DNA of 32,000 nucleotides from Candidatus Methanoperedens sp. (GTDB taxonomy: Archaea > Halobacteriota > Methanosarcinia > Methanosarcinales > Methanoperedenaceae), in assembly GCA_027460535.1 (NCBI GenBank), contig JAPZAR010000012.1, positions 1-32,000 on the forward strand, given 5' to 3'. The translations under genes and the position numbers were made by a program. The notes under the pieces are model-generated. The model saw only the letters and a list, made by a program, of their open reading frames with translations, was not told the origin of the DNA and ran no database searches. Below, in pieces: positions 7,090 through 20,992 of the stretch (within the stretch, counting starts at the first letter, position 1; each line of letters begins with the position of its first letter).

Positions 7090-8088
7090 TTATTTTACTT
7101 TTGCCTGATTCTTAGATTTTTCATCGAATGTTAACTGGATAAATTGCTTCGTGTCATTCCATATATTCTGCTCCTGAATATCTTTCCAGTATGCTACAAA
7201 CTCCTCGTATATCGCAGAACGGCGCTCGCGCAGATGCTGCTGGAAGTGCAGCAGTCCGGGCTCAAGAATCCCAAAGGAGTCGTCCTGCCCGAAATAATCA
7301 AGAGAATATGCCCGTTCATCATCCATGAATTGAGGCAAATATTCCATCCATACATCGCAGTCGTGCAGATCTCCGAGCATATCCTGGAGTTTTTTGCAGA
7401 CCAGAAGCTGGTTCTCCAGTTCCTCCTCGTAAAGGGGTGAAAACACCTCCATCGTGTAGCGAAGGCGCTTTACAGCAATACGCATGGCATGGTGCTCTTT
7501 TATATTTTCAGGGATGTAAACTGAGGCTTCATGAGCGAATATCTCATCAAGCCGCGTTGTTATGTGGACAATCGCTTTTTGATAAATCTTTGGAGAATTG
7601 ACTTCAGCTCTACCCTTGCGCATCTTACGGCACAACTTTTCCATATCCTCCGCCACGCCACTCTCATGAAGCCTGTCAATGGCCTCGATCACACGCGGTT
7701 GCGTCCGCTCCCTGCGCTGCCTGAGGCGCAGGAGGAAGCGCTGCGCACCAGGGCGGAGGCTTTCCTCTTTTAGCTTCTCGGTGTATGCCTTAAGGAAAGC
7801 TATCTGCACATCTGCATCCCGTGCCTCCCTAAGAGCGCGAGTGATATTGCGGATCTCTTTTCGCCAGTCCCTGTACTTCTTAGGAGGGAAACACTCTTCA
7901 AAAAGTGGAAGGCAGGAGCGGATCCGCCTTGATGCGACTCGCATCCTGTGAATGAACTCAATGTCCTTCGCCTCACGCACGCCTTCTATCTCCCTGGAAA
8001 GGGACCGAAGAAGCGGGCGAAGTCTATCCGCTCCGAAAAGGCAATATCCAGTGAAGTTTTTCAGAGATCCTTTCCTCTTAGAAATCAC
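7090..8088 (-). CDS. CHAD domain-containing protein
   Basis: Helical protein with CHAD signatures FIHRMRVASRRIRSCLPLF and HHAMRIAVKRLRYTMEVF. The GTG start at 8088 overlaps the ppk1 stop by 11 nt. Confidence 0.8.
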   Translation of the reverse strand: MISKRKGSLKNFTGYCLFGADRLRPLLRSLSREIEGVREAKDIEFIHRMRVASRRIRSCLPLFEECFPPKKYRDWRKEIRNITRALREARDADVQIAFLKAYTEKLKEESLRPGAQRFLLRLRQRRERTQPRVIEAIDRLHESGVAEDMEKLCRKMRKGRAEVNSPKIYQKAIVHITTRLDEIFAHEASVYIPENIKEHHAMRIAVKRLRYTMEVFSPLYEEELENQLLVCKKLQDMLGDLHDCDVWMEYLPQFMDDERAYSLDYFGQDDSFGILEPGLLHFQQHLRERRSAIYEEFVAYWKDIQEQNIWNDTKQFIQLTFDEKSKNQAKVK

Positions 8089-10321
8089 CGTGCCACAACC
8101 CCCTGTTCCCGATCAGCCACTCCTGCGAATTCATCTCTTTCTCTCCGGGAGAAAGTGTAACGCGCTCGTACGTACTATCGCTCAATAACCGCCTTGCTTT
8201 TACATTGTCCTTCAGGTGGACATTGAGTATATCCTTGATTATCACAGATTTTATATCCGGATCCTCCACAGGGAAGAGCGTTTCCACCCGGTCGTCAAAG
8301 TTCCGTGTCCTGAGGTCCGCACTTCCGAGCAGGACCTCTTCATCCCCGCCGTTTCTGAAATAGTATATTCGTGCGTGTTCGAGAAAACGTCCTACAATGG
8401 ATGTTACAGTGATATTCTCACTTACCCCCGGAATTCCGGGGCGAAGGGCGCACAGGGCGCGCACGTTCAGGTCGATTTTTACACCTGCTTGAGACGCCCT
8501 GTAAAGAGCCAGGATTATCTCCATGTCAGTTATGCCATTGTTCTTGAATGCCATATATCCGTCCCCGTGCTCTCTATGGCGTGTGATCTCTCTTTCGATG
8601 CGTCCCAGGAATTCCCGTCGCAAATCATAAGGCGCAACAAGGAGTTTGTGATACTTCTGCTTTCCATAATAACCTGTGAGTGCGTTGAAGAGGTGGGACA
8701 TATCTGCACAGATCTGCGGGTTGCAGGTAAAGTAGCCAAGGTCGCCATAGATCCTGGCTGTGACGGAATTGAAGTTCCCCGAACTAAGGTAACCGTATCG
8801 GATTATTTCCTTTCCTTCTCTCCTGACAACAAGGCATAATTTGGCATGAACCTTCAGTCCCGGTCTCCCGTATACCACATGCACACCCGCCCGCTCAAGT
8901 GCATGCCCCCACCCAATATTTTTTTCTTCATCGAAGCGCGCTGTCAGTTCCACAACAACAGCCACCTGCTTACCATTCTGCCGCGCCTTAATAAGTGCAT
9001 CAATGACGGGGGAATTGGCATCGATCCGGTAAAGCGTTATTTTTATAGCCAGCACATCAGGATCCTGTGCAGCCTGATGTAAGAATTTGATAAAGGGCAA
9101 AAAACTGTCATAAGGATAGTAGAACAGGACATCACGGTTGCGCATAGCCGGGAAAATTCTTTTTTCGTTATCTAAGAATGAAGGATTTGAAGGAAGAAAC
9201 TGTTTATCCTTCAGATCGGGGCGGTCCAGTCTCATCAATTCCCATAAATCTGCAGTCCCCATGATACCCTCTATATCACTGACCAGGTAGGAAGGCAGTG
9301 CAAGTTTATTGGCAAGCATGTGACGGATGTCGTCGGGCATGGATACATCCACTTCAAGCCTCACTGGCGGCCCGGTACGGCGAAACTCCATACTTTCCTC
9401 AACCTGGGTCGCAAGGTCATACTCCCCATTCAGATGAGCCTTAATTTCAGAATCGCGCGTGATGCGGAAAGGATACGATGCAACCACTTCCATGCCCGGG
9501 AAGAGCATGTCCAGATTTGCGGCAATGAGATCTTCAAGCAGGACGAAGTGGGTGTTTTTCCAGCTGGCAGCGCTGTGTTCGGTATTCTTACCGTTTTCCA
9601 CTTCCGGCACACCGATAAAGCGCGGGAATAAACAGGTGGGTACCTTGACGCGTGCAAACATTTGTTTTTCAAAGTTACCTTGAGTTACCCTGACCACAAC
9701 AGCAATATTGATCGTGAGATTGGAAATGAATGGAAAAGGATGAGCCGCATCGAATGCCAGAGGGGTTAGGGTCGGAAATATTTCATATTCGAAGAAGCGT
9801 CGCAGAAGAACCTTCTGTTCTTCCTCAAGGTCGCTATATCTGTCGATATGGATACCTTCGCTGTGGAGCTTTGGTAAGAGTTCATACCAGCCGCGTGCAT
9901 GATCAGCAATAAGTGGAATTAACTCTTTTTGAATCGCTTCCAGTTGTTCTGACGGTGACATCCTGTCAGGGCGTGCTTTGACCGTCCCTGTGGCACGCCG
10001 CAGGGATGAAACCCGAACCATGAAGAACTCATCGATGTTGCTTCCACAAATAGCCAGAAACTTCACTCTTTCCAGGACTGGCTGGCGCTCATCCATTGCT
10101 TCCTCAAGCACCCGCTGATTGAATTTGAGCCAGCTAAGCTCACTATTGATGAAGTTTCCGGGATCATCAAGAGAAACGCTTTCCGTACTGATTTTCAATG
10201 GCTTTTCAATAACACTCTCCTCGGAATTTATATCCATCTGTTGTTTTTCCATAATACAGGCATCCTGTTGATCAGTAGTAAATTTTCGACATCCCAATCC
10301 CGAAACTCCCTTTCTCATCAT
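8078..10321 (-). CDS. ppk1: Polyphosphate kinase 1
   Basis: Full-length PPK1 similarity: FINSELSWLKFNQRVLEEA, VKFLAICGSNIDEFFMVRV, TPLAFDAAHPFPFISNL, the phospho-His region GLKVHAKLCLVVRRE, and C-terminal PLD-like domains. The true start may be the internal MEKQQMD, 23 codons downstream. Confidence 0.9.
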   Translation of the reverse strand: MMRKGVSGLGCRKFTTDQQDACIMEKQQMDINSEESVIEKPLKISTESVSLDDPGNFINSELSWLKFNQRVLEEAMDERQPVLERVKFLAICGSNIDEFFMVRVSSLRRATGTVKARPDRMSPSEQLEAIQKELIPLIADHARGWYELLPKLHSEGIHIDRYSDLEEEQKVLLRRFFEYEIFPTLTPLAFDAAHPFPFISNLTINIAVVVRVTQGNFEKQMFARVKVPTCLFPRFIGVPEVENGKNTEHSAASWKNTHFVLLEDLIAANLDMLFPGMEVVASYPFRITRDSEIKAHLNGEYDLATQVEESMEFRRTGPPVRLEVDVSMPDDIRHMLANKLALPSYLVSDIEGIMGTADLWELMRLDRPDLKDKQFLPSNPSFLDNEKRIFPAMRNRDVLFYYPYDSFLPFIKFLHQAAQDPDVLAIKITLYRIDANSPVIDALIKARQNGKQVAVVVELTARFDEEKNIGWGHALERAGVHVVYGRPGLKVHAKLCLVVRREGKEIIRYGYLSSGNFNSVTARIYGDLGYFTCNPQICADMSHLFNALTGYYGKQKYHKLLVAPYDLRREFLGRIEREITRHREHGDGYMAFKNNGITDMEIILALYRASQAGVKIDLNVRALCALRPGIPGVSENITVTSIVGRFLEHARIYYFRNGGDEEVLLGSADLRTRNFDDRVETLFPVEDPDIKSVIIKDILNVHLKDNVKARRLLSDSTYERVTLSPGEKEMNSQEWLIGNRGLWHGDF

Positions 10322-10400
10322 GCGAATTGTTTTCTAAGTATTTATTGACCTGGCTCAGAACTGCTCATACTACATTCTGATTTTTCTGAAGAGATATATA

Positions 10401-10898
10401 TCAAGCGCATGCATCCACGGTATTTACTGCGCTCTGTGTCTCGGATTCATACTCTTCTCTTACAAACCCTTTTGAGACTTCAAACAAATCAGAAAGCCAT
10501 TTCTTACCATTATCATGGAAAATGATGGGAAGCTTCGCTTCCAGCGGTTTAAGCCTGTTTAAGAACTGCCCAACGGTCTCGGATTCGATCAGAATCTGGC
10601 AGAAGGGGTGCTCTGGATACGATATGCTGATCGCCTTAAGATAGACTAAAGGATCGCCGCCGTTCTCAATGAACTTACACATCATCTTAATGGGTGTGAA
10701 TTCAACATTGGTCGCTTCTTTGCCATTATCTGCAACACCTTCCACCATTCTGATAAAGTTATCCCAGCCGTTGCCATTCTCCCATTTTTTAAACCTCTCT
10801 TCAATGAGTAAAATGTCTCTTCTGTGAATCTTCTGAATGAGCTGGAGATCTTTCCTGTAAATCTCTTCTTTGAATAGCTCGATATTATCTAATTTCAT
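10401..10898 (-). CDS. Hypothetical protein (165 aa), no recognisable domain
   Basis: Clean ATG-initiated ORF, AT-rich. It ends 79 bp upstream of ppk1 on the same strand, and a copy of the TATAGATT-N12-TATATA module lies upstream of it. Confidence 0.5.
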   Translation of the reverse strand: MKLDNIELFKEEIYRKDLQLIQKIHRRDILLIEERFKKWENGNGWDNFIRMVEGVADNGKEATNVEFTPIKMMCKFIENGGDPLVYLKAISISYPEHPFCQILIESETVGQFLNRLKPLEAKLPIIFHDNGKKWLSDLFEVSKGFVREEYESETQSAVNTVDACA

Positions 10899-10996
10899 TA
10901 TATAGGCCTCCCAGTCCGTTTATCAGCTTCATGGGTCATTCCTTTTTTATCAGGTGGCAAAAACGAATGACCCTTAATTATTGTTAAAATTCTGAT

Positions 10997-11031
10997 GTTA
11001 TATACTTAATCTCTATAATCTATATAGAAAA
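10997..11031 (-). promoter_or_regulatory. Promoter/operator module copy (minus orientation) upstream of the 165-aa gene
   Basis: The minus strand reads TTTTCTATATAGATTATAGAGATTAAGTATATAAC. The TATATAGATT core and the downstream TATATAAC box have the same spacing as the module at 14575-14620. Confidence 0.5.
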
Positions 11032-11120
11032 CCAGCAGAAGCCGTGTGATTAGAATGGTTGTAAATGGTCATTTCGTGAATGATTGGTACTTACCTAAGA
11101 AGACAAGTTATAATCACATC

Positions 11121-12770
11121 TTATGCATGCAGTGCATTCTCAACCCCGGCAGTTTCCCTCCCTATTTTAAGACTGGAGAATTCACGGTTCCAATGAGAGC
11201 CCTGGATTACATTCAAATTGAGCTTCCTCCTGAATATTTTTTCGAATGCTTTCACATTCGACTCTACACCCCACACTTCAAGCTCGCAGCCGCCATCAGG
11301 CCATATAGCGAGATCGACTTTTGTTCTATCTTTCCCGGTGAATTCTGCCTTTTTTACGAGGCAGGTATGGCTTCTGTCGAGTTTCTCAGCAAGGCGCAGC
11401 AGCATGGATAGGATAATCACGGTATTCGCAGAGTGCTCATCGAGCAGAGCTAAAGCCTGGTCCTTTCTCTTTGGAAGCTTCTTCCTGTGGAACCTGGCAA
11501 CGTTTGCCATTATATTTATCTCGATCTGGTCAAAGCCGGGGAGCTCTGTGTTGCCTATTATGTAATGCGAGTGGAGATGATGACTTTTAAATGCTATGAA
11601 GCCGCCGATATCGTGCAGGAACGAAGAGTACTTCAATAGCTCCCTCTCCCGTTCATCCATGTCGTGCAGCCCGATCCTCCTAGAACTGTCAAAAAGCGAA
11701 AGTGCAAGAGATATGACAGCGTTGGCGTGCCGCTCGTTGATATTGCATGATCTTCCAAGCTGGAGCACGCTCATCTCCCTGACAGACATCTCCTGGAACT
11801 GCGGAAACCCTTCATGTTTTGACAGGTAATCCATGAGCATTCCGTGGACTATGCCCCTGTCGCTGATTGTAATCTCTTCAAGCCCGAACTCCTCCATTAT
11901 TGTCTCGAGGATAGCAGCGCCCCCAACGATTATGTCCGCTCTCTCGGGGTTGATTCCCTGGATCTTCTTTCTCTCATCGAGGGCAAGCGCGCAGAGTGTC
12001 GAAACTACCTTCCTTAGATTCTTGTAGTTCAGGACAAGGTTTCTTCCTGCGCCGTCCCGTTCATGCAGATTCATCGCTATCTCGGCCAGGTTAACGATAG
12101 TGCCTGAACTTCCGAAAGCGCACTCTATCCTCGCACTCTTCATGAATTGAGCTGTTTTGAGAATTCTGTTCTTGATGTACAGCTTCATCCTTGCATAAAC
12201 ATCCTGTGGCACAGGTGCTGTCCCCCCATCCTGAATGAACCTAGTAGTGAGCCTTATTGCCCCTAGTTCGAAGCTGTCGACGTAATATTGCTGGAACTGA
12301 TCGCCTATCGCAAGCTCCGTGCTCCCTCCCCCTATATCGATGAAGATTGCCTTCCTCTTGCCAATATGGACTCCGCTCGAGACCCCAAGATAGATGAGAC
12401 GTGCCTCTTCCTTTCCAGGTATGACCCTGACTTCCAGCTTCGCCTCATCTTTTAGCTGTTCAAGGAATTCTACCTGGTTTTTCGCCTCCCGTGCCGCAGA
12501 AGTGGCTATAGCGATAATCTCTCCAGCGCCGAAGGATTTTGCGAGTTCCGCGAACTTTTTGCAAACCAGAACCGCTCGCTCCATTGCCTCTGGCTGGAGG
12601 TGATTGCTCTTGAACTCGTTCTCGCCGAGCCTGACAACCTCCTTCTCCTGCCGCAGCACAGTATACGAATGATTGGGGTTGAGTCTGACGAGTATAAGTC
12701 GGATAGAGTTTGTCCCAATATCTATGAACGCCAGTATCTTTTCCTCAAGTTGATCAAGGTGCATTCTCAT
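11121..12770 (-). CDS. ppx: Exopolyphosphatase / guanosine pentaphosphate phosphohydrolase family (Ppx/GppA) with C-terminal HD domain
   Basis: ASKHA N-terminus AFIDIGTNSIRLILV, FIDIGGGSTEL, then HD module FLHDIGGFIAFKSHHLHS and VARFHRKK. The ORF is open to 12905, but the first 45 codons are AT-rich and low-complexity, so ATG 12770 or 12764 is preferred. The last ~25 codons come from a duplicated DNA segment (see repeat features). Confidence 0.85.
   Translation of the reverse strand: MRMHLDQLEEKILAFIDIGTNSIRLILVRLNPNHSYTVLRQEKEVVRLGENEFKSNHLQPEAMERAVLVCKKFAELAKSFGAGEIIAIATSAAREAKNQVEFLEQLKDEAKLEVRVIPGKEEARLIYLGVSSGVHIGKRKAIFIDIGGGSTELAIGDQFQQYYVDSFELGAIRLTTRFIQDGGTAPVPQDVYARMKLYIKNRILKTAQFMKSARIECAFGSSGTIVNLAEIAMNLHERDGAGRNLVLNYKNLRKVVSTLCALALDERKKIQGINPERADIIVGGAAILETIMEEFGLEEITISDRGIVHGMLMDYLSKHEGFPQFQEMSVREMSVLQLGRSCNINERHANAVISLALSLFDSSRRIGLHDMDERERELLKYSSFLHDIGGFIAFKSHHLHSHYIIGNTELPGFDQIEINIMANVARFHRKKLPKRKDQALALLDEHSANTVIILSMLLRLAEKLDRSHTCLVKKAEFTGKDRTKVDLAIWPDGGCELEVWGVESNVKAFEKIFRRKLNLNVIQGSHWNREFSSLKIGRETAGVENALHA
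11134..11207. repeat. Copy B of the ~75-bp duplicated segment (3' end of ppx, up to 13 bp from its stop codon at 11121-11123)
   Basis: GCATTCTCAACCCCGGCAGTTTCCCTCCCTATTTTAAGACTGGAGAATTCACGG... On the minus strand it encodes HWNREFSSLKIGRETAGVENAL, versus HPDREFPSLKIERETARVENAL in the 635-aa protein. Confidence 0.85.
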
Positions 12771-12951
12771 ATAATTATAATCATGATTAGGTTCTATTAT
12801 ATCATGTTTTCTACCGTTGCCATTTCCATCCCCTTCAATACGGTCTGGGCAAGGACTCAACTTGCTAAAATTAAAGCCCCCACAAAATGTTTTCATAGCG
12901 TTCATTCAAGTGTTAATTAAATCTTAGTCAGAGGTTTTTAAATAACTTATG

Positions 12952-12961
12952 TATATAGATT
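12952..12961 (+). promoter_or_regulatory. Isolated TATATAGATT core in the ppx / PHP divergent spacer
   Basis: Exact 10-mer shared with the modules at 14591, 15546 and (reverse) 11017 and 13537. Confidence 0.35.
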
Positions 12962-13536
12962 ATATATTCTATTTATCTAAGGAACTATCTCTTAAGCTTA
13001 TCAACGATTCGGTTAGTTCCTCTACAAAATGCAATATGGACTTTGCAAACAGGGTTATCGAAGAACATAAAGGATTAGGTGAGGACTAACAATCCGTAAA
13101 TCATACCTTGAAATGTTGCTTGAGAAAAAAATAACTGCCTTCTATTTAGCCTATATACTTTTAGAGACATCAATGGCTAACTCAGCGATTATGCAGCATA
13201 GTTTCCTATCCTCTTTACGCTATCTGCCATGAGCCCGATGGACATGACCGCATCGGGATCAGAGCTGTTGCTGGATGTGTTAATCTTGAACTGTGCAAAG
13301 GAAGGTTTCAGGCGTTAAAAGGAGAAGAAGAAGTTAAAGTGGTAAATATTAAAGAGCTGCTCAGCGGAAGCAAGTTCTATTACTTTTTAGTTCAGTTGCT
13401 TCTCGCCTGGGTATAGAAAAAATCGGCGTAGATTGTCCATATTATATTTATATGATTAGAATATAGAATATTAGAATATATTAACTTTTTATTTTATGTT
13501 AATACCCCAACCGCTACGGTCGGAACAAAGGGTAAG

Positions 13537-13546
13537 AATCTATATA
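13537..13546 (-). promoter_or_regulatory. Isolated TATATAGATT core (reverse orientation) about 60 bp upstream of the PHP gene
   Basis: The plus strand reads AATCTATATA, followed by the TATA-like CATTATATATTTTA and ATG 13602. Confidence 0.35.
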
Positions 13547-13601
13547 CATTATATATTTTACTAAGATAGTCTTTATTTTGTTAATGTAATAATCGTTCTG
13601 C

Positions 13602-14495
13602 ATGGAAAATATCGAACAGAAGAATCATATTGGCAAAGCAGATATTCACGTACACACCAGGTATTCAGGGTTCGGACAATGTTCTTTTATTCATTTCCCT
13701 GAATCTGTTACCGAGCCAGTTAAAGCCGTCGAGGCTGCCCGCAGGAAAGAACTTGATGTCCTTTGCATAACAGACCACAACACAATCCGGGGTGCTATCA
13801 TCGCCCAAAAACATTCACGGGATATCGAGGTTGTAGTTGGAGAAGAGATTTCAAGCGCAGACGGAGAGATCCTGGCGCTGTTCATCCAGGAAGAGATCAA
13901 ACCCATGCGCAGCGCTCCTGAGACTATAGACCTTATACACGGCCAGGGAGGTATTGCTATAGCTGCACATCCTTTTAGCCCATATTGCCACTCTCTCGAA
14001 ACTAAAATACATAATTTAAAACTGGACGGAGTGGAAGTATTCAATGCATACCATCGTGATGCCTACTCTAATTTAATGGCCCAGACCTTCACTTCAGGAA
14101 GACTGGCAAAGCTGGGGAGCAGCGATGCCCATTCAATAAATATGATAGGCAACGGATACACAATTTTTGAGGGAAAAACCTCAGAGGAACTTAGGAAATC
14201 CATCATAAACAGAAAAACCTCCTTTGGCGGAACAAGAACGCCTCTGTCAGAATGCATTTCGTGGAGCAAAGAAATAGCCTCGGAGAGCATTAAAATGATT
14301 TATGATTCCCTGACAGGAGAGAAAAGCCAGGACATATTATACTTGGAAATAGATAAAACTACAAGAAGGACCAAAGCCCTGGGATTGATTGGCGCTGCAC
14401 TGTATATCGGGCTACCATTATCGTATTTTTTCGGTGTCTCGGGGGAAATTATCTTGAATTTAAAGGGTAAAAGAAAATGGAATGAGAACATATAG
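13602..14495 (+). CDS. PHP-domain metal-dependent phosphoesterase with C-terminal transmembrane anchor
   Basis: PHP motifs ADIHVHTRYS, CITDHNTIRGA, GEEISSADGEILALF, IAAHPFSP, GVEVFNAY, GSSDAHS. C-terminal hydrophobic helix ALGLIGAALYIGLPLSYFFGV. Confidence 0.8.
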   Translation: MENIEQKNHIGKADIHVHTRYSGFGQCSFIHFPESVTEPVKAVEAARRKELDVLCITDHNTIRGAIIAQKHSRDIEVVVGEEISSADGEILALFIQEEIKPMRSAPETIDLIHGQGGIAIAAHPFSPYCHSLETKIHNLKLDGVEVFNAYHRDAYSNLMAQTFTSGRLAKLGSSDAHSINMIGNGYTIFEGKTSEELRKSIINRKTSFGGTRTPLSECISWSKEIASESIKMIYDSLTGEKSQDILYLEIDKTTRRTKALGLIGAALYIGLPLSYFFGVSGEIILNLKGKRKWNENI

Positions 14496-14574
14496 GTATG
14501 CTGGTTTAATGCGAGAACTGTGCCATAGCGTATCCATTATCAAAATAACGGCCAATGAACAGAATAATTTTCTA

Positions 14575-14620
14575 CTGATTTTATGTAGCATATATAGATT
14601 ATTGTGATAAATTATATAAC
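14575..14620 (+). promoter_or_regulatory. Conserved 46-bp promoter/operator module, copy 1
   Basis: CTGATTTTATGTAGCATATATAGATTATTGTGATAAATTATATAAC. The TATA-like box at 14609-14618 lies about 27 bp before ATG 14641, consistent with a leaderless transcript. Confidence 0.6.
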
Positions 14621-14640
14621 TCTGTGGGTGGAATTTCGAT

Positions 14641-14790
14641 ATGGTGATAGAAATGAAAGAAAAGAAACAAATTATGAAAAAATCCCTCTCCTGCGGCACA
14701 CGATTTCCACCGGAAGAAGGATTTATGGAAATAAATCAGGAAGACAAGGAGATTTACCTGTTCCTGCGCGGCGGATTTTCTGCCAAGTAG
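14641..14790 (+). CDS. Candidate small protein (49 aa)
   Basis: ATG placed at leaderless distance from the module's TATA box. Translates as MVIEMKEKKQIMKKSLSCGTRFPPEEGFMEINQEDKEIYLFLRGGFSAK. No homology recognised and too short for the ORF track. Confidence 0.25.
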   Translation: MVIEMKEKKQIMKKSLSCGTRFPPEEGFMEINQEDKEIYLFLRGGFSAK

Positions 14791-14804
14791 GAAGAGTTGA
14801 GACT

Positions 14805-14963
14805 ATGAATACACTTGACATTCTGATATACATCTGCGAAAAAAGAGAGGAATTTGTAGTGAATGGATTGAATGCACAGGATGCATTAGCAAAAGCAACG
14901 CAGGCAATAGCTGAAGAATATCATATATGCTCTGCATCCATAACTAAACTGGTTACTCTATGA
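14805..14963 (+). CDS. Candidate small protein (52 aa)
   Basis: Internal ATG of the 14604-14963 track ORF, whose GTG start lies inside the promoter module. Translates as MNTLDILIYICEKREEFVVNGLNAQDALAKATQAIAEEYHICSASITKLVTL. No homology recognised. Confidence 0.3.
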   Translation: MNTLDILIYICEKREEFVVNGLNAQDALAKATQAIAEEYHICSASITKLVTL

Positions 14964-15084
14964 TGAAACCGGATTGAATCTGCATTTATCCTCGACCTTA
15001 TTGATCTTAAAAAATGAGCTTGAATAGGATTGAAATTTTTCTGATAATTCTTCTTTTCTTACTTGCTTTGATGATGGTATTTAA

Positions 15085-15492
15085 ATGATTGACCATCCAA
15101 AATTTTTCAAAAAAATTACTGATTCCATTGTTACCATCGTCCTGTATATATTGCTGTTAACCCTTATCGCAGGGATGCTGCGGATTTTACTTGATATGCG
15201 CTCTGTGGCGATAGACTCGGTGGAGGGCGGTTTTAACAAAATAGTTACTAATGTTCTCACGCTTTTTATTGTAATTGAGTTCTTCAAAACCTTTGCAGAC
15301 TATTCGAAACTCGAAAGAATCAAACTCACCGACATAACCGACGTCACGATTTTAATAGCTATGCGTGAGGTCACTGTCGGGCTTTACTCCAAATCATTTG
15401 GATATGAAACTATTTTCGCCCTCTCAGCGCTGCTGCTGGTGCTTGGAGTGATAAGGATGCTGGCTGTAAAGTACTCGCCAGAAAAGATTTGA
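15085..15492 (+). CDS. psiE: PsiE-like (phosphate-starvation-inducible protein E family) small membrane protein
   Basis: 135 aa with four hydrophobic segments. Length and layout match PsiE (VLTLFIVIEFFKTFADY, VTILIAMREVTVG). Family assignment is from memory of E. coli PsiE, not from a search. Confidence 0.55.
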   Translation: MIDHPKFFKKITDSIVTIVLYILLLTLIAGMLRILLDMRSVAIDSVEGGFNKIVTNVLTLFIVIEFFKTFADYSKLERIKLTDITDVTILIAMREVTVGLYSKSFGYETIFALSALLLVLGVIRMLAVKYSPEKI

Positions 15493-15529
15493 GAGTGATT
15501 GCAGCTCTTTGATAGGAAATCTAATTATA

Positions 15530-15575
15530 CTGATTTTCTTTAGAATATATAGATTATTGAGATAAAATATATTAC
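15530..15575 (+). promoter_or_regulatory. Conserved 46-bp promoter/operator module, copy 2
   Basis: CTGATTTTCTTTAGAATATATAGATTATTGAGATAAAATATATTAC. The TATA-like box at 15565-15574 lies about 28 bp before ATG 15598. Confidence 0.6.
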
Positions 15576-15597
15576 ATATAGCGTGAAGCTATAATAT

Positions 15598-16488
15598 ATG
15601 AATACAAAAATTGGCATAAACTCTCCTCAGATAAAAGATTTTGGAGGAGCAATAGATCCATGTGAAGTGGATATCATTGAACTTGGTCTTGATAGAATGG
15701 ATTTTTTAGACGAACAAAAAGAGAAGGAACTATTGTCTAAAACTGCCTATCTTGCCTCATCTTTTGGCACTGAATTCACTATCCATGCCCCACACATTGA
15801 CTCCAGGATTGAAAGATTAAAGATCGATTTTTCAACCAATAATGAAAAAATTTTTACTGTTATGGAGAAGGTCTTCATAATCGCCGCAGAAATAGGAGCA
15901 GAATATATAGTTGTTCATCCAGGCAGTCAGAATGGCGGAAGAAAATGTCTTAACTTGAATATTCTTAATTTAATACATATATGTGGTCTTGCCGAAGAAT
16001 ACGGCGTCATCCTCCTTTTGGAGAACCTGTTTGACAGGAACGGTGGAAATAAAGTTGGTGTGTTTCCTGGAGAAATTTTCCATATGATTGAAATGGTAGA
16101 TTCGGAGCATTTAAAGATAAATCTGGATATCGGTCATGCGTTTATTGCCTCCAATGCTTATGGATTATCCCTGGAAGATTATTTTGAATTAGGTGGCTAC
16201 ATACATCAAATGCATCTTCATGATAACTTTGGCATTCTGGAGTCTGAAGAAGCAATGTTTGGAGACCGCCACCTTCCACTAGGGCTTGGAAAAATAAATT
16301 TCAGGGAAGTTTTCAAAAACATATTAAAGACAAATGCAAGAAATTTAATCTTGGAAATTAAGAACTCACCGAGAGAATATACCCTCACAAGCCTTACACA
16401 AATCAGAGAATTTTGCAGTTTAAGGTTTGGTTTAAAGCCCCCTGCAATTACGTATTCTATTGAACCTGCTATCGCATGCATTCAATAA
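15598..16488 (+). CDS. Xylose-isomerase-like TIM-barrel protein (sugar phosphate isomerase/epimerase family)
   Basis: Family pattern FTIHAPH, YIVVHPG, LLLENL, NLDIGHAF, MHLHDN. Confidence 0.7.
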   Translation: MNTKIGINSPQIKDFGGAIDPCEVDIIELGLDRMDFLDEQKEKELLSKTAYLASSFGTEFTIHAPHIDSRIERLKIDFSTNNEKIFTVMEKVFIIAAEIGAEYIVVHPGSQNGGRKCLNLNILNLIHICGLAEEYGVILLLENLFDRNGGNKVGVFPGEIFHMIEMVDSEHLKINLDIGHAFIASNAYGLSLEDYFELGGYIHQMHLHDNFGILESEEAMFGDRHLPLGLGKINFREVFKNILKTNARNLILEIKNSPREYTLTSLTQIREFCSLRFGLKPPAITYSIEPAIACIQ

Positions 16489-16537
16489 GGCTTAGATTTT
16501 ATATCTCCTCTAAACATCTCCCTGGAATCATAATTTA

Positions 16538-16583
16538 CTGATTTTCTATAGCATCTATAGATTCTTGGGAGAAGCTATATATT
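16538..16583 (+). promoter_or_regulatory. Conserved 46-bp promoter/operator module, copy 3 (pst operon)
   Basis: CTGATTTTCTATAGCATCTATAGATTCTTGGGAGAAGCTATATATT contains the perfect palindrome ATCTATAGAT. The TATA-like box is at 16575-16584, a GGTGA Shine-Dalgarno-like site precedes the start, and ATG is at 16621. Confidence 0.6.
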
Positions 16584-16620
16584 ATTTGATGCTAAAATTC
16601 CTGCTGGTGAAAAAAAGAAA

Positions 16621-17724
16621 ATGAATCGATTAAAGATAATACTAATTTTGATTCTGGCAGGCGTGCTGGTAGCTGGGTGTGTAAGCACGCCGCCTGCCCA
16701 AGTACAGCCTACAGTACAAACAACGGCGCAGCCTCCGGCAACTATAACCTTAAATGGTGCGGGTGCAACATTTCCATACCCTCTGATATCCAAATGGAGT
16801 TCGGAACATAGCAAAATAAATCCAAATATCCAGATCAATTATCAGAGCGTGGGAAGCGGTGCGGGAATACAGCAGATAACTGCAAAAACGGTAGATTTTG
16901 GCGCAAGTGATGCGCCTCTCTCAGAGCAGGTATATAAAAATCTTACAGGCATCCTGCAAATACCCGAAACCATAGGTGCAGTGGTCGTAGCGTATAACCT
17001 GCCCGGCATACAGAAGGGAGTGAATTTGAGCGGCGATGTAATTGCTGACATTTTCCTTGGAAAAATCACAAAATGGAACGACCCGAGGATAGTCTCACTT
17101 AATCCTGATATTCAATTCCCGCCAAAAGACATTATCGTAGCACACAGGAGCGATGGAAGCGGCACGACTTTCGTATTCACGGATTATCTTTCAGCGGTAA
17201 GCCCTGACTGGAAATCACAGGTTGGAAAAGGTACATCAGTCAACTGGCCTGTCGGTCTTGGCGGGAAAGGCAACGAGGGCGTTGCAGGTATCTTGAGCCA
17301 GAACCCTTACGCTATAGGGTATGTCGAACTTATCTATGCCAAGGCTCAGAACAACATCTCCTATTCATATATCAAGAACAAGGCAGGGATATTCATTGAA
17401 CCCACACTTGAGACAACGGCAAGCGCCGTTGCTGGAGCTGTGCCAACGCTGCCCGCAGGCGACGCAAGCTGGTCATCCGTAAGTGTTGTGAATGCCCCGG
17501 GAGACAATTCATACCCCATAAGCAGCTTTACCTATCTTCTTGTCTACAAAAACCAGGCAGAACTGACCAAGGGTAAAGCACTGGCTGAATTCCTCTGGTG
17601 GGCAGTACACGATGGACAGAGTTATTCCTCCGATCTCCAGTATGTGACGCTGCCAAAAGAAGTCGTAAGTCTGAATGAAAAAACCATAAAACTTATGAAC
17701 TACAACGGACAACCGCTAATCTAG
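16621..17724 (+). CDS. pstS: Phosphate ABC transporter substrate-binding lipoprotein
   Basis: Signal peptide with lipobox LVAGC, then PstS pattern GAGATFPYPL, YQSVGSGAGI, DFGASDAPL, HRSDGSGTT. Confidence 0.9.
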   Translation: MNRLKIILILILAGVLVAGCVSTPPAQVQPTVQTTAQPPATITLNGAGATFPYPLISKWSSEHSKINPNIQINYQSVGSGAGIQQITAKTVDFGASDAPLSEQVYKNLTGILQIPETIGAVVVAYNLPGIQKGVNLSGDVIADIFLGKITKWNDPRIVSLNPDIQFPPKDIIVAHRSDGSGTTFVFTDYLSAVSPDWKSQVGKGTSVNWPVGLGGKGNEGVAGILSQNPYAIGYVELIYAKAQNNISYSYIKNKAGIFIEPTLETTASAVAGAVPTLPAGDASWSSVSVVNAPGDNSYPISSFTYLLVYKNQAELTKGKALAEFLWWAVHDGQSYSSDLQYVTLPKEVVSLNEKTIKLMNYNGQPLI

Positions 17725-18729
17725 ATGGATAGATCGAGATTGCCTTCTTTCCGTATCAGCCGGAGCAAACTCTCAGGCGATTTTATTTTTGAAGCTGTAG
17801 TCGGCTCATTTGCTCTGGGAATAATAATCCTTGCAATTTTATTGTTCAGGGAACTTTTTATAGAGTCTCAACTTTCAAGAGATGCTTTTGGCACGGGTTT
17901 TTTGACAGGTTCTGTATGGGATCCAGTGAAAGAGGTATTCGGCGCCCTGCCTTTTATCTTCGGGACTCTTGTTTCATCATTCCTTGCCCTGCTCATAGCT
18001 GTCCCATTTAGCCTCGGGATAGCGATATTTCTCTCAGAACTCGCTCCGGAAAAGCTGAGGACGCCCCTATCTTTCATCATAGAATTGCTTGCCGCCGTCC
18101 CAAGCGTCATTATCGGGCTCTGGGGCATATTCATTCTCGCCCCGTTCATCCACGACTATCTTGCGCCGCCTCTTTCAACATATCTTGGTTTTCTGCCGCT
18201 CTTCCAGGGACCAATGTACGGTCCGTCCATGCTTACCGGTGGCATGATACTTGCAATAATGATTATCCCGATAACCTCATCGGTGTCTAAGGAAGTCCTC
18301 ATGACAGTGCCGACGCAACAGCGGGAAGCAGCCATCGCTCTCGGCGCTACAGGCTGGGAGACCACACGGATTGCGGTACTCCCCTATGCCAGATCTGGAA
18401 TATTCGGGGCGGTAATTCTTGGATTTGGACGTGCTATCGGCGAAACAATGGCAGTAACCATGGTCATCGGGAACAGCCACCACATCAAGGCATCCCTTTT
18501 CGCGCCATCAGATACCATGGCATCGGTTATTGCAAACGAGTTAATGGAGGCACCGTCCAAGCTTTACGTCTCATCTCTTATTGAGATCGGGTTTTTGCTT
18601 CTGGTGATATCCGTCATAATCAACATAGCAGCCAGGATTTTGGTGTGGAAGTTTGATGAATCCAATGATATCCACCTTTTTAGACGGATTCGTCAAATGC
18701 TTAATGTGGAAGGAGGCGAGAGGGCATGA
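17725..18729 (+). CDS. pstC: Phosphate ABC transporter permease PstC
   Basis: Polytopic permease with the EAA-type loop REAAIALGATGWETTRIAVLPYARSGI. The ATG directly follows the pstS stop. Confidence 0.9.
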   Translation: MDRSRLPSFRISRSKLSGDFIFEAVVGSFALGIIILAILLFRELFIESQLSRDAFGTGFLTGSVWDPVKEVFGALPFIFGTLVSSFLALLIAVPFSLGIAIFLSELAPEKLRTPLSFIIELLAAVPSVIIGLWGIFILAPFIHDYLAPPLSTYLGFLPLFQGPMYGPSMLTGGMILAIMIIPITSSVSKEVLMTVPTQQREAAIALGATGWETTRIAVLPYARSGIFGAVILGFGRAIGETMAVTMVIGNSHHIKASLFAPSDTMASVIANELMEAPSKLYVSSLIEIGFLLLVISVIINIAARILVWKFDESNDIHLFRRIRQMLNVEGGERA

Positions 18730-19562
18730 AATGGAATAAAAGAAAATTAATTGACCGAACTATGTCCTTCCTGACCGCCGCCTGCGTTGCTATCGCCATA
18801 ATCCCACTGCTGAGCATCCTCTACACAGTAACCATCAATGGGATATCATCTATAAACCCGGATTTTCTTACACAGCTCCCCAAACCTGTGGGTGAAGCAG
18901 GAGGCGGGCTTGGGAACGCTATCCAGGGGACATTTATAGTCGTAGGGATTGCCTGCTTAATCGGGCTTCCCATAGGCATTCTTTCAGGGATATATCTTTC
19001 AGAATATGGGGCAAACAGGTTTGGACGTTTTGTAAGTTTCGTGGCTGATGTCCTCACCGGCACGCCCTCGATAGCTGCAGGGATGTTCGGTTATACCTTC
19101 ATAGTCCTTTATTTTGGAAGCTTCTCTGCAATTGCAGGCGGGGTAGCTCTCTCTGTATTGATGATCCCCATTGTTACGAGAACTACCGAGGAGTCCCTCA
19201 AACTTGTGCCTGGATCAATTAAAGAAGCTTCCCTTGCCCTTGGGATACCGCGGTGGAAAACAACATTATATATTGTTTTGAGCACTGCCAGGAGCGGTAT
19301 AATCACTGGAGCATTACTGGCAATCGCAAGAATATCTGGTGAGACCGCGCCTCTCCTTTTCACTTCATTTGGGAACATGTTCTGGGCTAGCGGAATAGAC
19401 AAACCAATATCGACACTGCCGGTGCAGATTTACACATATGCAATAACACCCTTCCCTGACTGGCATGCCAAAGCCTGGGGAGGAGCCCTCATTCTGATCA
19501 TTCTGATTCTTATTTTAAATATTGGTGTGAGGTTCATTATCAGAAGAAGATATTCAGTGTAA
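18726..19562 (+). CDS. pstA: Phosphate ABC transporter permease PstA
   Basis: Permease with [34 protein letters not shown] overlap with pstC. Confidence 0.9.
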
Positions 19563-19578
19563 GAATAGGAGTATAAAA

Positions 19579-20337
19579 GTGCAGAATAAGATTACCGTTG
19601 AAGCCCTCAATGCATGGTTCGGAACAAAGCATGTTCTAAAAGATATTGATCTTGGTTTCCAGGAAAACAGGATAACCGCCATCATAGGCCCTTCCGGATG
19701 CGGAAAATCCACATTTATCCGATGCCTCAACCGGATGCATGAAGTTGTACCCAGGGCAAAAGTCTCAGGAAAAGTACTGGTTGATGGCAAGGATATCTAT
19801 GAAAGCGATGTCGACCCTGTAGACATAAGAAGGCGCATAGGTATGGTATTCCAGAAGCCCAACCCTTTCCCTACGATGTCTATTAGTGATAATGTTGTGG
19901 CTGGATTGAAGCTCAGTGGAGTGAAAGATAAAAAGATCCTTGATAACATTGCCGAGGAGAGTCTAAAAAAAGCCGCACTATGGGACGAAGTGAAGAATGA
20001 CCTCAATAAATCGGGTGTGAGTCTGTCAGGCGGTCAGCAGCAGCGTCTCTGCATCGCAAGAGCATTAGCTGTTGAGCCAGAGGTTATCCTGTTTGACGAA
20101 CCCTGCTCAGCTTTAGACCCTATATCCACAAGCAAGATTGAAGATTTAATGATGGAACTGAAAGAAAAATATACCCTTATTATAGTAACGCATAATATGC
20201 AGCAGGCAGCAAGGGTAAGCGATTTTACAGCTTTCTTTCTTTATGGAGAGTTAATAGAGTTTGGAGAAACAAATCAGATATTTAAGAAGCCACAGGAAAA
20301 GAGTACCGAGGATTACATAGTCGGGAGGTTTGGATAA
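19579..20337 (+). CDS. pstB: Phosphate ABC transporter ATP-binding protein PstB
   Basis: Walker [10 protein letters not shown], signature [14 protein letters not shown], Walker [13 protein letters not shown]-loop VTHNM. GTG start. Confidence 0.95.
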
Positions 20338-20338
20338 T

Positions 20339-20992
20339 ATGGTTCGCGAAGCGTATCACAGAGATCTTCATAAGTTAAGGGAGGAAGTAGTCAGCATGGG
20401 AAGCCTTGTAGGCAAGGCGATAGGAGATTCGGTTCTATCCCTCAAGAATCGGGATGTGGGAATGGCCCAGAAGGTCATTGATATGGATATTGAGATTGAT
20501 GCCCTCGATCAGAGCATTGAGGAGGGCTGCATGCGACTGCTCGCACTCCAGCAGCCTATGGCGAGGGATTTGAGACTTATAATCTCGGTATTAAAGATGT
20601 CCATTGACCTTGAAAGGATGGGTGACCTTGCTTTAGAGATAGCGGTTATTACAAAGATTACAGCTAATGTGCCGCCAGTGAAGCCGCTCATAGACATACC
20701 GAGAATGGCAGAGACATGCCAGCAAATGTTGGCGAATACCATGACCGCTTTTGAAAATAAGGATGTGGAGCTTGCAAAGACTATTGCAAAGCGGGATGAT
20801 GAAGTCGATATGCTCTTTGACCAGGTAAGAAGAGAGCTGATTTCCTATATGATCGAGGACCCAAAAAAGATAACCGGCGCCCAGCACCTAACCTTTGTGG
20901 CAAGGTATCTTGAGAGGATAGGTGACCACATAACGAATCTCTGTGAAAACGTGGTGTTCATGGTGACAGGCGAACGGGCGGAGTTGAATTGA
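20339..20992 (+). CDS. phoU: Phosphate signalling complex protein PhoU
   Basis: Two PhoU repeats (IDALDQSIEEGCMRLLALQQPMARDLR; DEVDMLFDQVRRELISYM; ARYLERIGDHITNL). The track ORF starts at TTG 20330, but ATG 20339, just after the pstB stop, is preferred. Confidence 0.9.
   Translation: MVREAYHRDLHKLREEVVSMGSLVGKAIGDSVLSLKNRDVGMAQKVIDMDIEIDALDQSIEEGCMRLLALQQPMARDLRLIISVLKMSIDLERMGDLALEIAVITKITANVPPVKPLIDIPRMAETCQQMLANTMTAFENKDVELAKTIAKRDDEVDMLFDQVRRELISYMIEDPKKITGAQHLTFVARYLERIGDHITNLCENVVFMVTGERAELN

Follow-up and report, generated by a model that had tools for sequence, protein, structure and literature searches.

The Pho box of Escherichia coli, CTGTCAT-N4-CTGTCAT, replaces the -35 element and is bound by a response regulator of the OmpR family. 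To our knowledge, archaea lack the PhoR/PhoB system, and the control of their phosphate genes is largely unknown. The closest described archaeal elements are the pho-boxes in the pst1 and pst2 promoters of Halobacterium salinarum, which are essential for up-regulation according to the account in PMC6560208 (citing Furtwaengler 2010) and are attributed there to 'PhoU regulators'. Archaeal PhoU-family proteins have been called 'putative regulators of phosphate uptake' (PMC2872624), pstSCAB-phoU and phoA of Methanosarcina mazei are induced on phosphate starvation as a 'PHO stimulon' with no regulator known (PMC6864096), and a chromatin-associated AbrB-PhoU protein has been reported from Thermococcus. 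Our search of the literature on archaeal phosphate control returned only 'putative PhoU regulators' and the pho-boxes of one haloarchaeon. Here we analyze a 48-bp promoter/operator module that recurs in front of phosphate and polyphosphate genes in a 32,000-nucleotide stretch of Candidatus Methanoperedens sp. (contig JAPZAR010000012.1, positions 1 to 32,000; hereafter the window).

Like the Halobacterium pho-boxes, the module is an archaeal cis-element in Pst-transporter promoters, with a predicted tie to phosphate-dependent transcription and no PhoR/PhoB pair in either case. Unlike those boxes as summarised, it is an AT-rich cassette of 48 bp with a fixed spacing to the TATA box, defined here by comparative genomics alone, and it is reused at seven or more operon types (the predicted regulon has about ten), including those of ppk1, pitA, phosphoesterase genes and regulator genes. 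The kind of element is thus already known; what appears to be new is the motif itself, its cassette-like reuse, its reach beyond the pst genes and a comparative link, across orders, to AbrB-PhoU, a protein of 333-340 amino acids in which an AbrB/MazE domain is fused to PhoU. We know of no demonstration that a PhoU-type protein binds either the Halobacterium pho-boxes or this module.

The parallel with the bacterial Pho box of PhoB and PhoP is one of layout. In both, one operator is common to pstSCAB-phoU, psiE, ppk and genes for phosphatases or phosphoesterases, its repeated boxes lie whole helical turns apart, and a PhoU module would lie in the signalling path. However, the archaeal motif is unrelated, the machinery is TBP/TFB, and no histidine kinase or response regulator takes part. 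The window modules lack CTGTCAT-like direct repeats of 7-mers with 11-bp periodicity, their promoter being apparently of the archaeal type with a TATA box and a TFB recognition element (BRE), and a Pfam scan of most large window open reading frames returned neither a response regulator nor a histidine kinase. Since the PhoU domain of AbrB-PhoU is fused directly to a DNA-binding domain, the predicted system would be a one-component one. Since it stands before genes for phosphate uptake and polyphosphate and, in most relatives, beside the abrB-phoU gene, the module is very probably the archaeal counterpart of the bacterial Pho box. Our joint reading, that it is an archaeal promoter fused to a Pho-regulon operator with AbrB-PhoU as its most likely binder, we put at a probability of about 0.6.

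Copies of the module in the window

The first-pass annotation of this DNA had pointed to three nearly identical 46-mers on the plus strand. We re-read all three at the positions and with the letters reported, and recounted 34 of 46 columns as invariant without gaps; the repeated module is confirmed. The conserved block begins 4 nt further to the left (T.TA), giving 48-bp modules with the consensus ACTGATTTT-N10-TATATAGATT-NTTGNGA. The copies are listed below, with scores from a weight matrix built on other genomes.

14571-14618, plus strand: module 1, full 48-bp promoter/operator (72.1 bits), driving tiny49-tiny52-psiE; ACTGATTTT at 14574-14582, core TATATAGATT at 14591-14600, TATA box at about 14612-14619
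15526-15573, plus strand: module 2, full (68.0 bits), driving the TIM-barrel (AP_endonuc_2) gene
16534-16581, plus strand: module 3, full (75.2 bits), driving pstSCAB-phoU; its core holds the perfect palindrome ATCTATAGAT
10997-11039, minus strand: module 4, a shortened variant, CTGCTGGTTTT-CTATATAGATT-ATAGAGATTAAG-TATATAAC, driving orph165-ppk1-CHAD and downstream genes
11017-11026 (minus), 12952-12961 (plus), 13537-13546 (minus), 14591-14600 (plus), 15546-15555 (plus): exact copies of the core TATATAGATT; a 9/10 copy lies at 16554-16563

With the window left out of training, modules 1-3 reach 68-75 bits (null maximum -13), and the matrix finds no further full module anywhere in the 32 kb. 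The pattern of invariant columns, allowing up to three mismatches, matches three times in the window and never in 100 dinucleotide-preserving shuffles. ATATAGATT occurs exactly five times, against 0.42 expected, a count reached in no shuffle, and the earlier census of the core 10-mer (five exact copies and one 9/10 copy) was correct. The proposed fourth copy is also real: a core-to-TATA sub-matrix, again trained without the window, scores 31.2 bits at 10999-11028 (minus) against a null maximum of 8.1. It lacks one unit of about 9-10 bp from the upstream half and keeps the core, a TTGnGA-like stretch and the TATA spacing; a variant of the module stands at the same place before orph165-ppk1 in two other loci (L085 and L103; L numbers denote loci fetched around motif matches in other genomes).

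Pfam bears out the gene calls behind the modules (PsiE, AP_endonuc_2 TIM barrel, PstS, PhoU, PPK1, Ppx-GppA):

14641-14790, plus strand: tiny49, a micropeptide gene, likely true start 14653
14805-14963, plus strand: tiny52, by synteny one unit with tiny49 and psiE
15085-15492, plus strand: psiE (Pfam PsiE, E 1.8e-10)
15598-16488, plus strand: TIM-barrel AP_endonuc_2 gene (Pfam E 1.2e-30)
16621-20992, plus strand: pstS-pstC-pstA-pstB-phoU operon (Pfam PstS and PhoU; precomputed Pfam families for pstC, pstA and pstB)
10401-10898, minus strand: orph165, behind module 4
8078-10321, minus strand: ppk1, behind module 4 (Pfam; synteny in L103)

The window also encodes TFB, exosome subunits, proteasome alpha, RNase P proteins and SRP19, which mark it as archaeal; in pattern and matrix scans none of these genes is preceded by the module.

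We next consider the anatomy of the promoter, taking the ATG of the TIM-barrel gene as +1. Six loci (L003, L004, L051, L098, L108, L119) keep exactly 25 nt between TATAT and this ATG; no ribosome-binding site is present, and the mRNA is therefore probably leaderless. On this map the TATA box is centred near -27.5, the core near -48, and ACTGAT spans -69 to -64. TATATA occupies module columns 39-44 and is preceded, at the BRE position, by GAnAAA; the 3' end of the module (AAa.TATATA) would thus be a BRE/TATA element that places transcription start some 26-27 nt downstream. At pstS, 38-40 nt separate TATAT from ATG, and the leader of about 15 nt includes GGTGA as ribosome-binding site. The annotation had predicted leaderless mRNAs for copies 1 and 2. 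This fits copy 2 and is uncertain for copy 1, whose orthologues keep GGTGA-N5-ATG at what corresponds to the second ATG, 14653; by its sequence the copy 1 mRNA would be either leaderless from 14641 or equipped with a ribosome-binding site and a leader of about 12 nt.

The near-palindrome singled out earlier as the site of a dimeric regulator would not be the sole recognition element, ACTGATTTT and TTGnGA being equally conserved. Nor would a regulator bound here overlap BRE/TATA, as had been supposed: the element runs from about -69 to -36, upstream of and abutting the BRE, and because it does not overlap the TATA box, repression is not implied. Compared with itself directly, the module shows similarity at offsets 9 and 18 and most strongly at 20. 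A model of 9-bp periodic repeats, which has part support from the first two offsets, was rejected since offset 20 is stronger. The strongest offset corresponds to two boxes, A[CT][TA]GATT[TC]T, which lie 20 bp apart (11 bp in the shortened ppk1 module); we retain this two-box model as a hypothesis. There is also inverted symmetry between the core and the TATA region, with the best inverted-repeat centre at column 30.5. We discarded an RNA element as well: the module lies upstream of the TATA box, and 10300-17000 contains no Rfam match bar one at chance level.

Conservation and targets in other genomes

At orthologous promoters the module is conserved as a block with defined edges. Some 35 further genomes of Methanoperedenaceae keep T.TACTGATTTTaTaTAgtATaTATAGATTcTTGgGA.AAa.TATATA with hardly a change, whereas the sequence before this block defies alignment. 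Over 49 distinct modules, columns before -3 carry about 0 bits of information and columns -3 to +44 carry 1-2.3 bits; values then stay low as far as the GGTGA ribosome-binding site. An alignment of pstS promoters from 15 species shows the same sharp left edge, with unalignable sequence upstream and near-invariance from TACTGAT to TATATA. Among orthologous loci from Methanoperedens species with a TIM-barrel protein of 72-84% identity, every one has the module before the tiny-ORF/psiE unit, the TIM-barrel gene and pstS.

We also scanned one genome per species (185,579 species) with the strict core-to-TATA pattern TATAGATTNTWKNGRNWANNTATAT, which samples the regulon and does not give its complete set. 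The scan returned at least 133 matches in at least 120 loci, about a third of them from Methanoperedenaceae; the remaining loci are AT-rich bacteria without the upstream element. Among the 133 matches listed, 49 carry the upstream xTGAy element, and 45 of these lie no more than 3 kb upstream of a phosphate gene or adjoin an AbrB-PhoU gene; the other four are chance matches in AT-rich bacteria. Matches near an ArsR gene (L015), an Lrp-like gene (L062) and in Methanoregula/Methanoregulaceae (L022, L089, L092) lack the upstream element and were discarded as noise. The targets among the matches listed are pstSCAB (of two unrelated types), tiny49-(tiny52)-psiE, the TIM-barrel gene, orph165-ppk1-CHAD, phoU_div(-pitA), abrB-phoU type B (see below), an S-layer-type gene, and a gene for a small 58-residue protein followed by LMW-PTP and PhoA. 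One motif is thus shared by several operons for phosphate uptake, scavenging and storage, to which relatives of the window add a second pst operon and the PHP gene.

The annotation had named the scattering of the motif before unrelated genes as what would speak against a regulon. The listed matches show no such scatter, and in both the window matrix scan and the pattern scan the module behaves as no general promoter feature. A generic strong-promoter consensus is rejected on the same grounds, as in the window and among the listed matches with the upstream element we found the module almost only in phosphate-gene context. The idea of a candidate archaeal Pho box is therefore supported by sharp-edged conservation at orthologous promoters in about 15 species and by restriction to phosphate genes.

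We regard tiny49 as a genuine, conserved micropeptide. Its orthologues encode 41-50 residues with a variable N-terminus and a C-terminus, E-x-YLF[LM]RGGF[AST]AK, that is invariant across species. They occur in more than 20 loci (among them L003, L006, L020, L025, L040, L044, L051, L054, L055, L060, L080, L082, L097, L119 and L126), always as the first gene 3' of the module that adjoins abrB-phoU. Neither tiny49 nor tiny52 matches a Pfam or NCBIfam family. In two distant lineages (L133, L135) a CxxC mini-protein occupies the position of tiny49.

AbrB-PhoU and competing readings

The gene that diverges from the first module in L003 and L006 codes for a 337-residue protein with PF04014 and PF01895. 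We call this gene type A. Its N-terminal domain belongs to the swapped-hairpin family, with 34-37 bits against the PF04014 cut-off of 24.7 (P0065, P0188, P0207, P0234), and its PhoU part scores 82 bits in two matched stretches of PF01895, as in two-repeat PhoU proteins. The bacterial PhoU structures 1T72, 1SUM and 2I0M align to residues 148-333; in the PDB comparison no full-length relative has a solved structure. Because the protein reaches only 72 bits against the NCBIfam cut-off of 130 for canonical PhoU, it is not an orthologue of the transporter-associated PhoU. The DNA-binding segment is the best conserved part of the protein. We compared eight type-A orthologues, six from non-Methanoperedens loci and two from Methanoperedens genomes, and all have METRKxYxSGGSTYVxSLPKKWV at the N-terminus with very little change.

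AbrB, MazE, SpoVT and MraZ factors bind as dimers or oligomers to extended, loose repeats and are often autoregulated from an adjacent promoter; MraZ recognises direct repeats about 10 bp apart. AbrB-PhoU resembles them in the PF04014 match of its N-terminal domain and differs in its partner, a double PhoU domain where those factors carry a tail that binds a toxin, a GAF domain or another AbrB domain, and in belonging to an archaeal family. We know of no AbrB-PhoU protein whose binding site has been determined.

Type A is the divergent neighbour of the module in L003/L101, L006, L025, L040, L044, L055, L060, L078, L082 and L125. Its ATG lies only 15-25 nt past the ACTGAT end of the module, on the opposite strand, which means that the TATAG unit of the module must serve as the TATA box of the gene. 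In L128, L130 and L132 the module stays with the type-A gene though no tiny49, or nothing recognisable, follows in the forward direction. A type-B paralogue, 30% identical, is itself driven by a forward module in L094, L132 and L128. The linkage also extends to distant lineages whose regulators are 43-61% identical and which show the order regulator, module, tiny open reading frame, pstSCAB-phoU, with the same or a related motif. These comprise L086 (Guaymas Methanosarcinales), L096 (SZUA-236), L114 (Hydrothermarchaeales), L133 and L135. L133, from an archaeon of 56% GC with cytochrome oxidase genes, carries ACTGATTTTCTATATAGTCTATAGATTCTTGGGAAAAAATATATA, almost the Methanoperedens consensus; in L135 a consistent variant of the site stands beside the regulator. 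A pstS promoter from Thermoplasmatales (L113) has the core-plus-TATA arrangement, as does a Woesearchaeota (DPANN) contig (L008, 1-260), on which TATAGATTATTGGGATTATTTATAT lies beside a divergent gene for a distant AbrB-PhoU-like protein of 300 residues. This last pairing hints that the linkage of site and regulator is very old, though chance in AT-rich DNA could also produce it. Two lists drawn up for distant homologues of AbrB-PhoU, as in Methanosarcina and Thermococcus, were filled by Methanoperedens proteins.

From this linkage we infer that AbrB-PhoU is probably the protein that binds the module; that phosphate is the signal we hold with more confidence. The upstream 35 bp (about -69 to -36), made up of ACTGATTTT, a TATAG-type unit, the core TATATAGATT and TTGnGA, would be the site of a phosphate-responsive transcription factor. 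In the mechanism we propose, the swapped-hairpin domain of AbrB-PhoU would contact the two GATT boxes, 20 bp or two helical turns apart; a tetramer presenting two AbrB-type dimers may be involved, as both box spacings (20 and 11 bp) are whole helical turns. The PhoU domain would convey phosphate status, much as PhoU in bacteria does via PstB. At abrB-phoU the module would be read backwards, with the opposite-strand TATAG unit as TATA box and the ATG 15-25 nt past ACTGAT, and binding would thus make AbrB-PhoU autoregulatory.

Several observations weigh against this assignment. Adjacency of a regulator gene to a site is no proof that its product binds there. The window itself contains no intact abrB-phoU, only a type-B pseudogene, and a protein-cluster look-up for type A in the source genome found no copy, the best candidate (P0066) belonging to another genome. 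Type B reaches only 20.5 bits for PF04014, below the Pfam cut-off of 24.7. The half-sites of the pstS core (ATC-N4-GAT) stand closer together than those of the PHP palindrome (ATC-N6-GAT), which is awkward for one rigid dimer. Finally, the absence of the module from other genes is drawn from the 32-kb window and a few loci of 13-21 kb, and loci were fetched around motif matches, with no complete Methanoperedens genome scanned.

Some of these points lend themselves to a different assignment, in which the module is a phosphate-regulon operator read by another factor, such as a winged-helix protein encoded elsewhere, tiny49 or tiny52, and abrB-phoU is a mere target whose product acts solely at the transporter. 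Gene adjacency is as compatible with a target as with a binder, the modules of the window are perfectly conserved though it has no intact abrB-phoU, and tiny49 is always the first gene downstream. Yet the module remains linked to abrB-phoU across regulators only 43-61% identical, even where all other neighbours differ, and AbrB-PhoU has a recognised DNA-binding domain above the Pfam threshold that is its best conserved part; tiny52 is missing from many module-bearing genomes, and neither small protein matches a known family. We consider another reader unlikely. The window's own subclade (L051, L054, L080, L119, L126) has the PHP gene in place of the divergent abrB-phoU, and relatives within it encode type A elsewhere: 3 kb off in L130, about 15-20 kb away on the L119/L132 contig, and on another contig in nzgw23. 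Far less probable still is a strong constitutive or bidirectional promoter cassette, duplicated within the phosphate island with no phosphate-specific control. Basal archaeal promoters need only BRE, TATA box and initiator. Two TATA-like units in opposite orientation, the divergent promoter at abrB-phoU and clear duplications, as before the S-layer gene in L003 and L109, fit such a cassette, but conservation of 1-2.3 bits extends over the 35 bp that precede the BRE, and at the TIM-barrel and pstS promoters the upstream half is kept without any divergent gene; no other window gene has the module, and its targets are functionally coherent. We give hardly any credence to a recent repeat, mobile element or gene conversion, by which the copies would be alike from youth and not from selection. 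Three copies do lie within 2 kb, near a rearranged spacer; however, each window copy resembles its orthologue from other species more than it does its neighbours, the pstS-type TCTATAGATTCTTGGGAGAAGC is common across species, terminal repeats and target duplications are absent, the full-module pattern has no match in viral contigs, and the region matches no Rfam family.

Granted that AbrB-PhoU is the binder, it could act in either direction. Most proteins of the AbrB, MazE and MraZ type act as repressors, and PhoU regulates negatively in bacteria. On this precedent an oligomer would spread over BRE/TATA at phosphate sufficiency, block TFB/TBP and be released on limitation. The near-consensus, A-rich BRE with TATATA, which suggests intrinsic promoter strength, would suit such a repressor, as would the gapless run of the conserved block into the BRE position (G30, G32 and A33 at 2.0-2.3 bits), the core being an inverted copy of the TATA region (centre column 30.5), and the overlap of the site with TATA box and start site at abrB-phoU. 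On the other side, the operator at -69 to -36, upstream of the BRE, occupies the usual position of an archaeal activator. It resembles the Ptr2, GvpE and Tar (TK0271) sites in lying directly upstream of BRE/TATA and in being palindromic or repeated, and differs from them in protein family and signal, activation being here one of two possibilities. The Tar activator site is immediately upstream of BRE/TATA (PMC6737238), and the Halobacterium pho-boxes are reported in PMC6560208 as essential for up-regulation, and not as operators whose removal gives de-repression. Because the element lies just upstream of the BRE and the Halobacterium boxes are needed for up-regulation, we slightly prefer activation under phosphate limitation, combined with autorepression, to which we give an even chance; repression at high phosphate, for which the behaviour of AbrB-type proteins, the negative part played by PhoU in bacteria and the consensus quality of BRE/TATA speak, falls somewhat short of that.

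A wider proposal can be built on the same comparisons. In it, AbrB-PhoU would serve archaea as the one-component phosphate sensor and transcription factor that has long been missing; the operator that it binds, with TATAG-type repeats and GATT boxes by the TATA box, would be conserved from Methanosarcinales to Hydrothermarchaeales and Thermoplasmatales and possibly in DPANN; in Methanoperedens it would have become a portable, bidirectional 48-bp cassette copied before every phosphate and polyphosphate operon; and tiny49 would be a partner of the regulator. Taken whole, we offer this tentatively and think it rather doubtful. Nevertheless, the module supplies a precise predicted operator, a regulon and a named candidate protein in a globally relevant, polyphosphate-storing, methane-oxidising archaeon, and since the pairing of regulator and site recurs in distant lineages, it could open phosphate regulation across a large part of the archaea. 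It is also a ready-made candidate for a phosphate-tunable promoter in the genetics of methanogens and anaerobic methanotrophic archaea (ANME).

The phosphate island, the ppx/PHP spacer and variant loci

Positions 1-23 kb of the window form a phosphate/polyphosphate island that is unusually complete. It holds genes for PPK2, a PPDK-like protein, an unknown protein of 672 residues, a metallophosphatase/HD protein, CHAD, PPK1, orph165 and PPX, followed by PHP, tiny49, tiny52, PsiE, the AP_endonuc_2 TIM barrel, pstSCAB-phoU, and PhoU_div with PitA. CHAD, the metallophosphatase/HD protein, the 672-residue protein and the PPDK-like protein are encoded downstream of ppk1. The metallophosphatase/HD fusion carries a Ppx-GppA domain III. 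GC content is 0.35-0.40 at 13-17 kb, against 0.45-0.52 across most of the remaining window. The window comes from a metagenome-assembled Candidatus Methanoperedens genome, and GCA_027460495.1 has an identical locus.

The protein behind module 2 had been described as a TIM barrel resembling sugar-phosphate isomerases. The barrel stands by Pfam; the best NCBIfam scores, though weak, are to the CbiR phosphodiesterase and to Nfo (endonuclease IV), and the protein is probably a phosphoesterase. By its homologue list the family is restricted to Methanoperedens. The PHP protein resembles nucleoside-bisphosphate phosphatase and RNase RNM, and both it and the TIM-barrel protein look more like phosphate-scavenging esterases than like sugar isomerases.

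Two core copies, at 12952-12961 and 13537-13546, had been called isolated. They are present, but not isolated, as both belong to the arms of a 22-nt imperfect inverted repeat, I2, in which 12940-12961 is 86% complementary to 13537-13558. The features of this spacer are:

12940-12961, plus strand: left arm of the 22-nt imperfect inverted repeat, with core TATATAGATT; on the minus strand it lies upstream of ppx
12985-13284, both strands: scrambled pseudogene of the type-B AbrB-PhoU paralogue (tblastn with the intact L094 and L025 proteins)
13537-13560, plus strand: promoter element of the PHP gene, AATCTATATACATT followed by ATATATTTTA (alignment of six PHP upstream regions)
13602-14495, plus strand: PHP-family metallo-phosphoesterase gene (Pfam PHP, PHP_C)

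In five orthologues the PHP promoter element is a perfect 14-bp palindrome, AATCTATATAGATT, from which the window copy departs by a G-to-C change, and the core at 13537 reads as an operator-like palindrome of the PHP gene promoter. The pseudogene consists of residues 256-289 at 12985-13086 (plus) and residues 293-336 at 13284-13154 (minus), the latter frameshifted, with tblastn E values of 1e-10 to 1e-11 and 2e-8 to 3e-8 for the pieces, and it is enclosed by nested imperfect inverted repeats (12940-13041 against 13435-13558). In the OBJ2 genome, where L094 and L126 are adjoining stretches of one contig, the order is intact: module, type B, a 456-residue protein, a PstS-like protein, PHP, module, tiny49. 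The pieces on both strands between nested repeats suggest that the ppx/PHP spacer of the window underwent an inversion or deletion between palindromic operator copies. The ppx open reading frame, 11121-12905 (minus), has a possible start at 12905 (594 residues) besides the annotated one at 12770 (549 residues). The longer version would begin about 30 nt downstream of a TTATTTAAAA box, itself placed after the core copy on the minus strand; either start may be the true one.

A few loci show the module, or its variants, before other genes. The conserved 58-residue protein (MKYSVGDIVKF...) has its own module variant in L119, at about 4860 and 6606 (minus, in tandem copies), and in L016 at 6105; in L119 its gene is followed by those of a prepilin-peptidase-like membrane protein, an LMW-PTP/ArsC protein and an alkaline phosphatase. 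In L003 (11030-12471) and L109 (from 1733) the TIM-barrel gene and pstS are separated by an inserted gene for an S-layer/PGF-CTERM surface protein. A duplicated pstS-type module with its leader drives it, and the module appears to have recruited this gene. In L044 (2179-3157) and L100 (5094-6050, minus) the pstS-type module is retained together with its 5' leader and the first codons (MNRLK...), while beyond these the pstS product has only 24-28% identity to the window PstS, which suggests gene replacement behind a conserved cassette of promoter and signal peptide.

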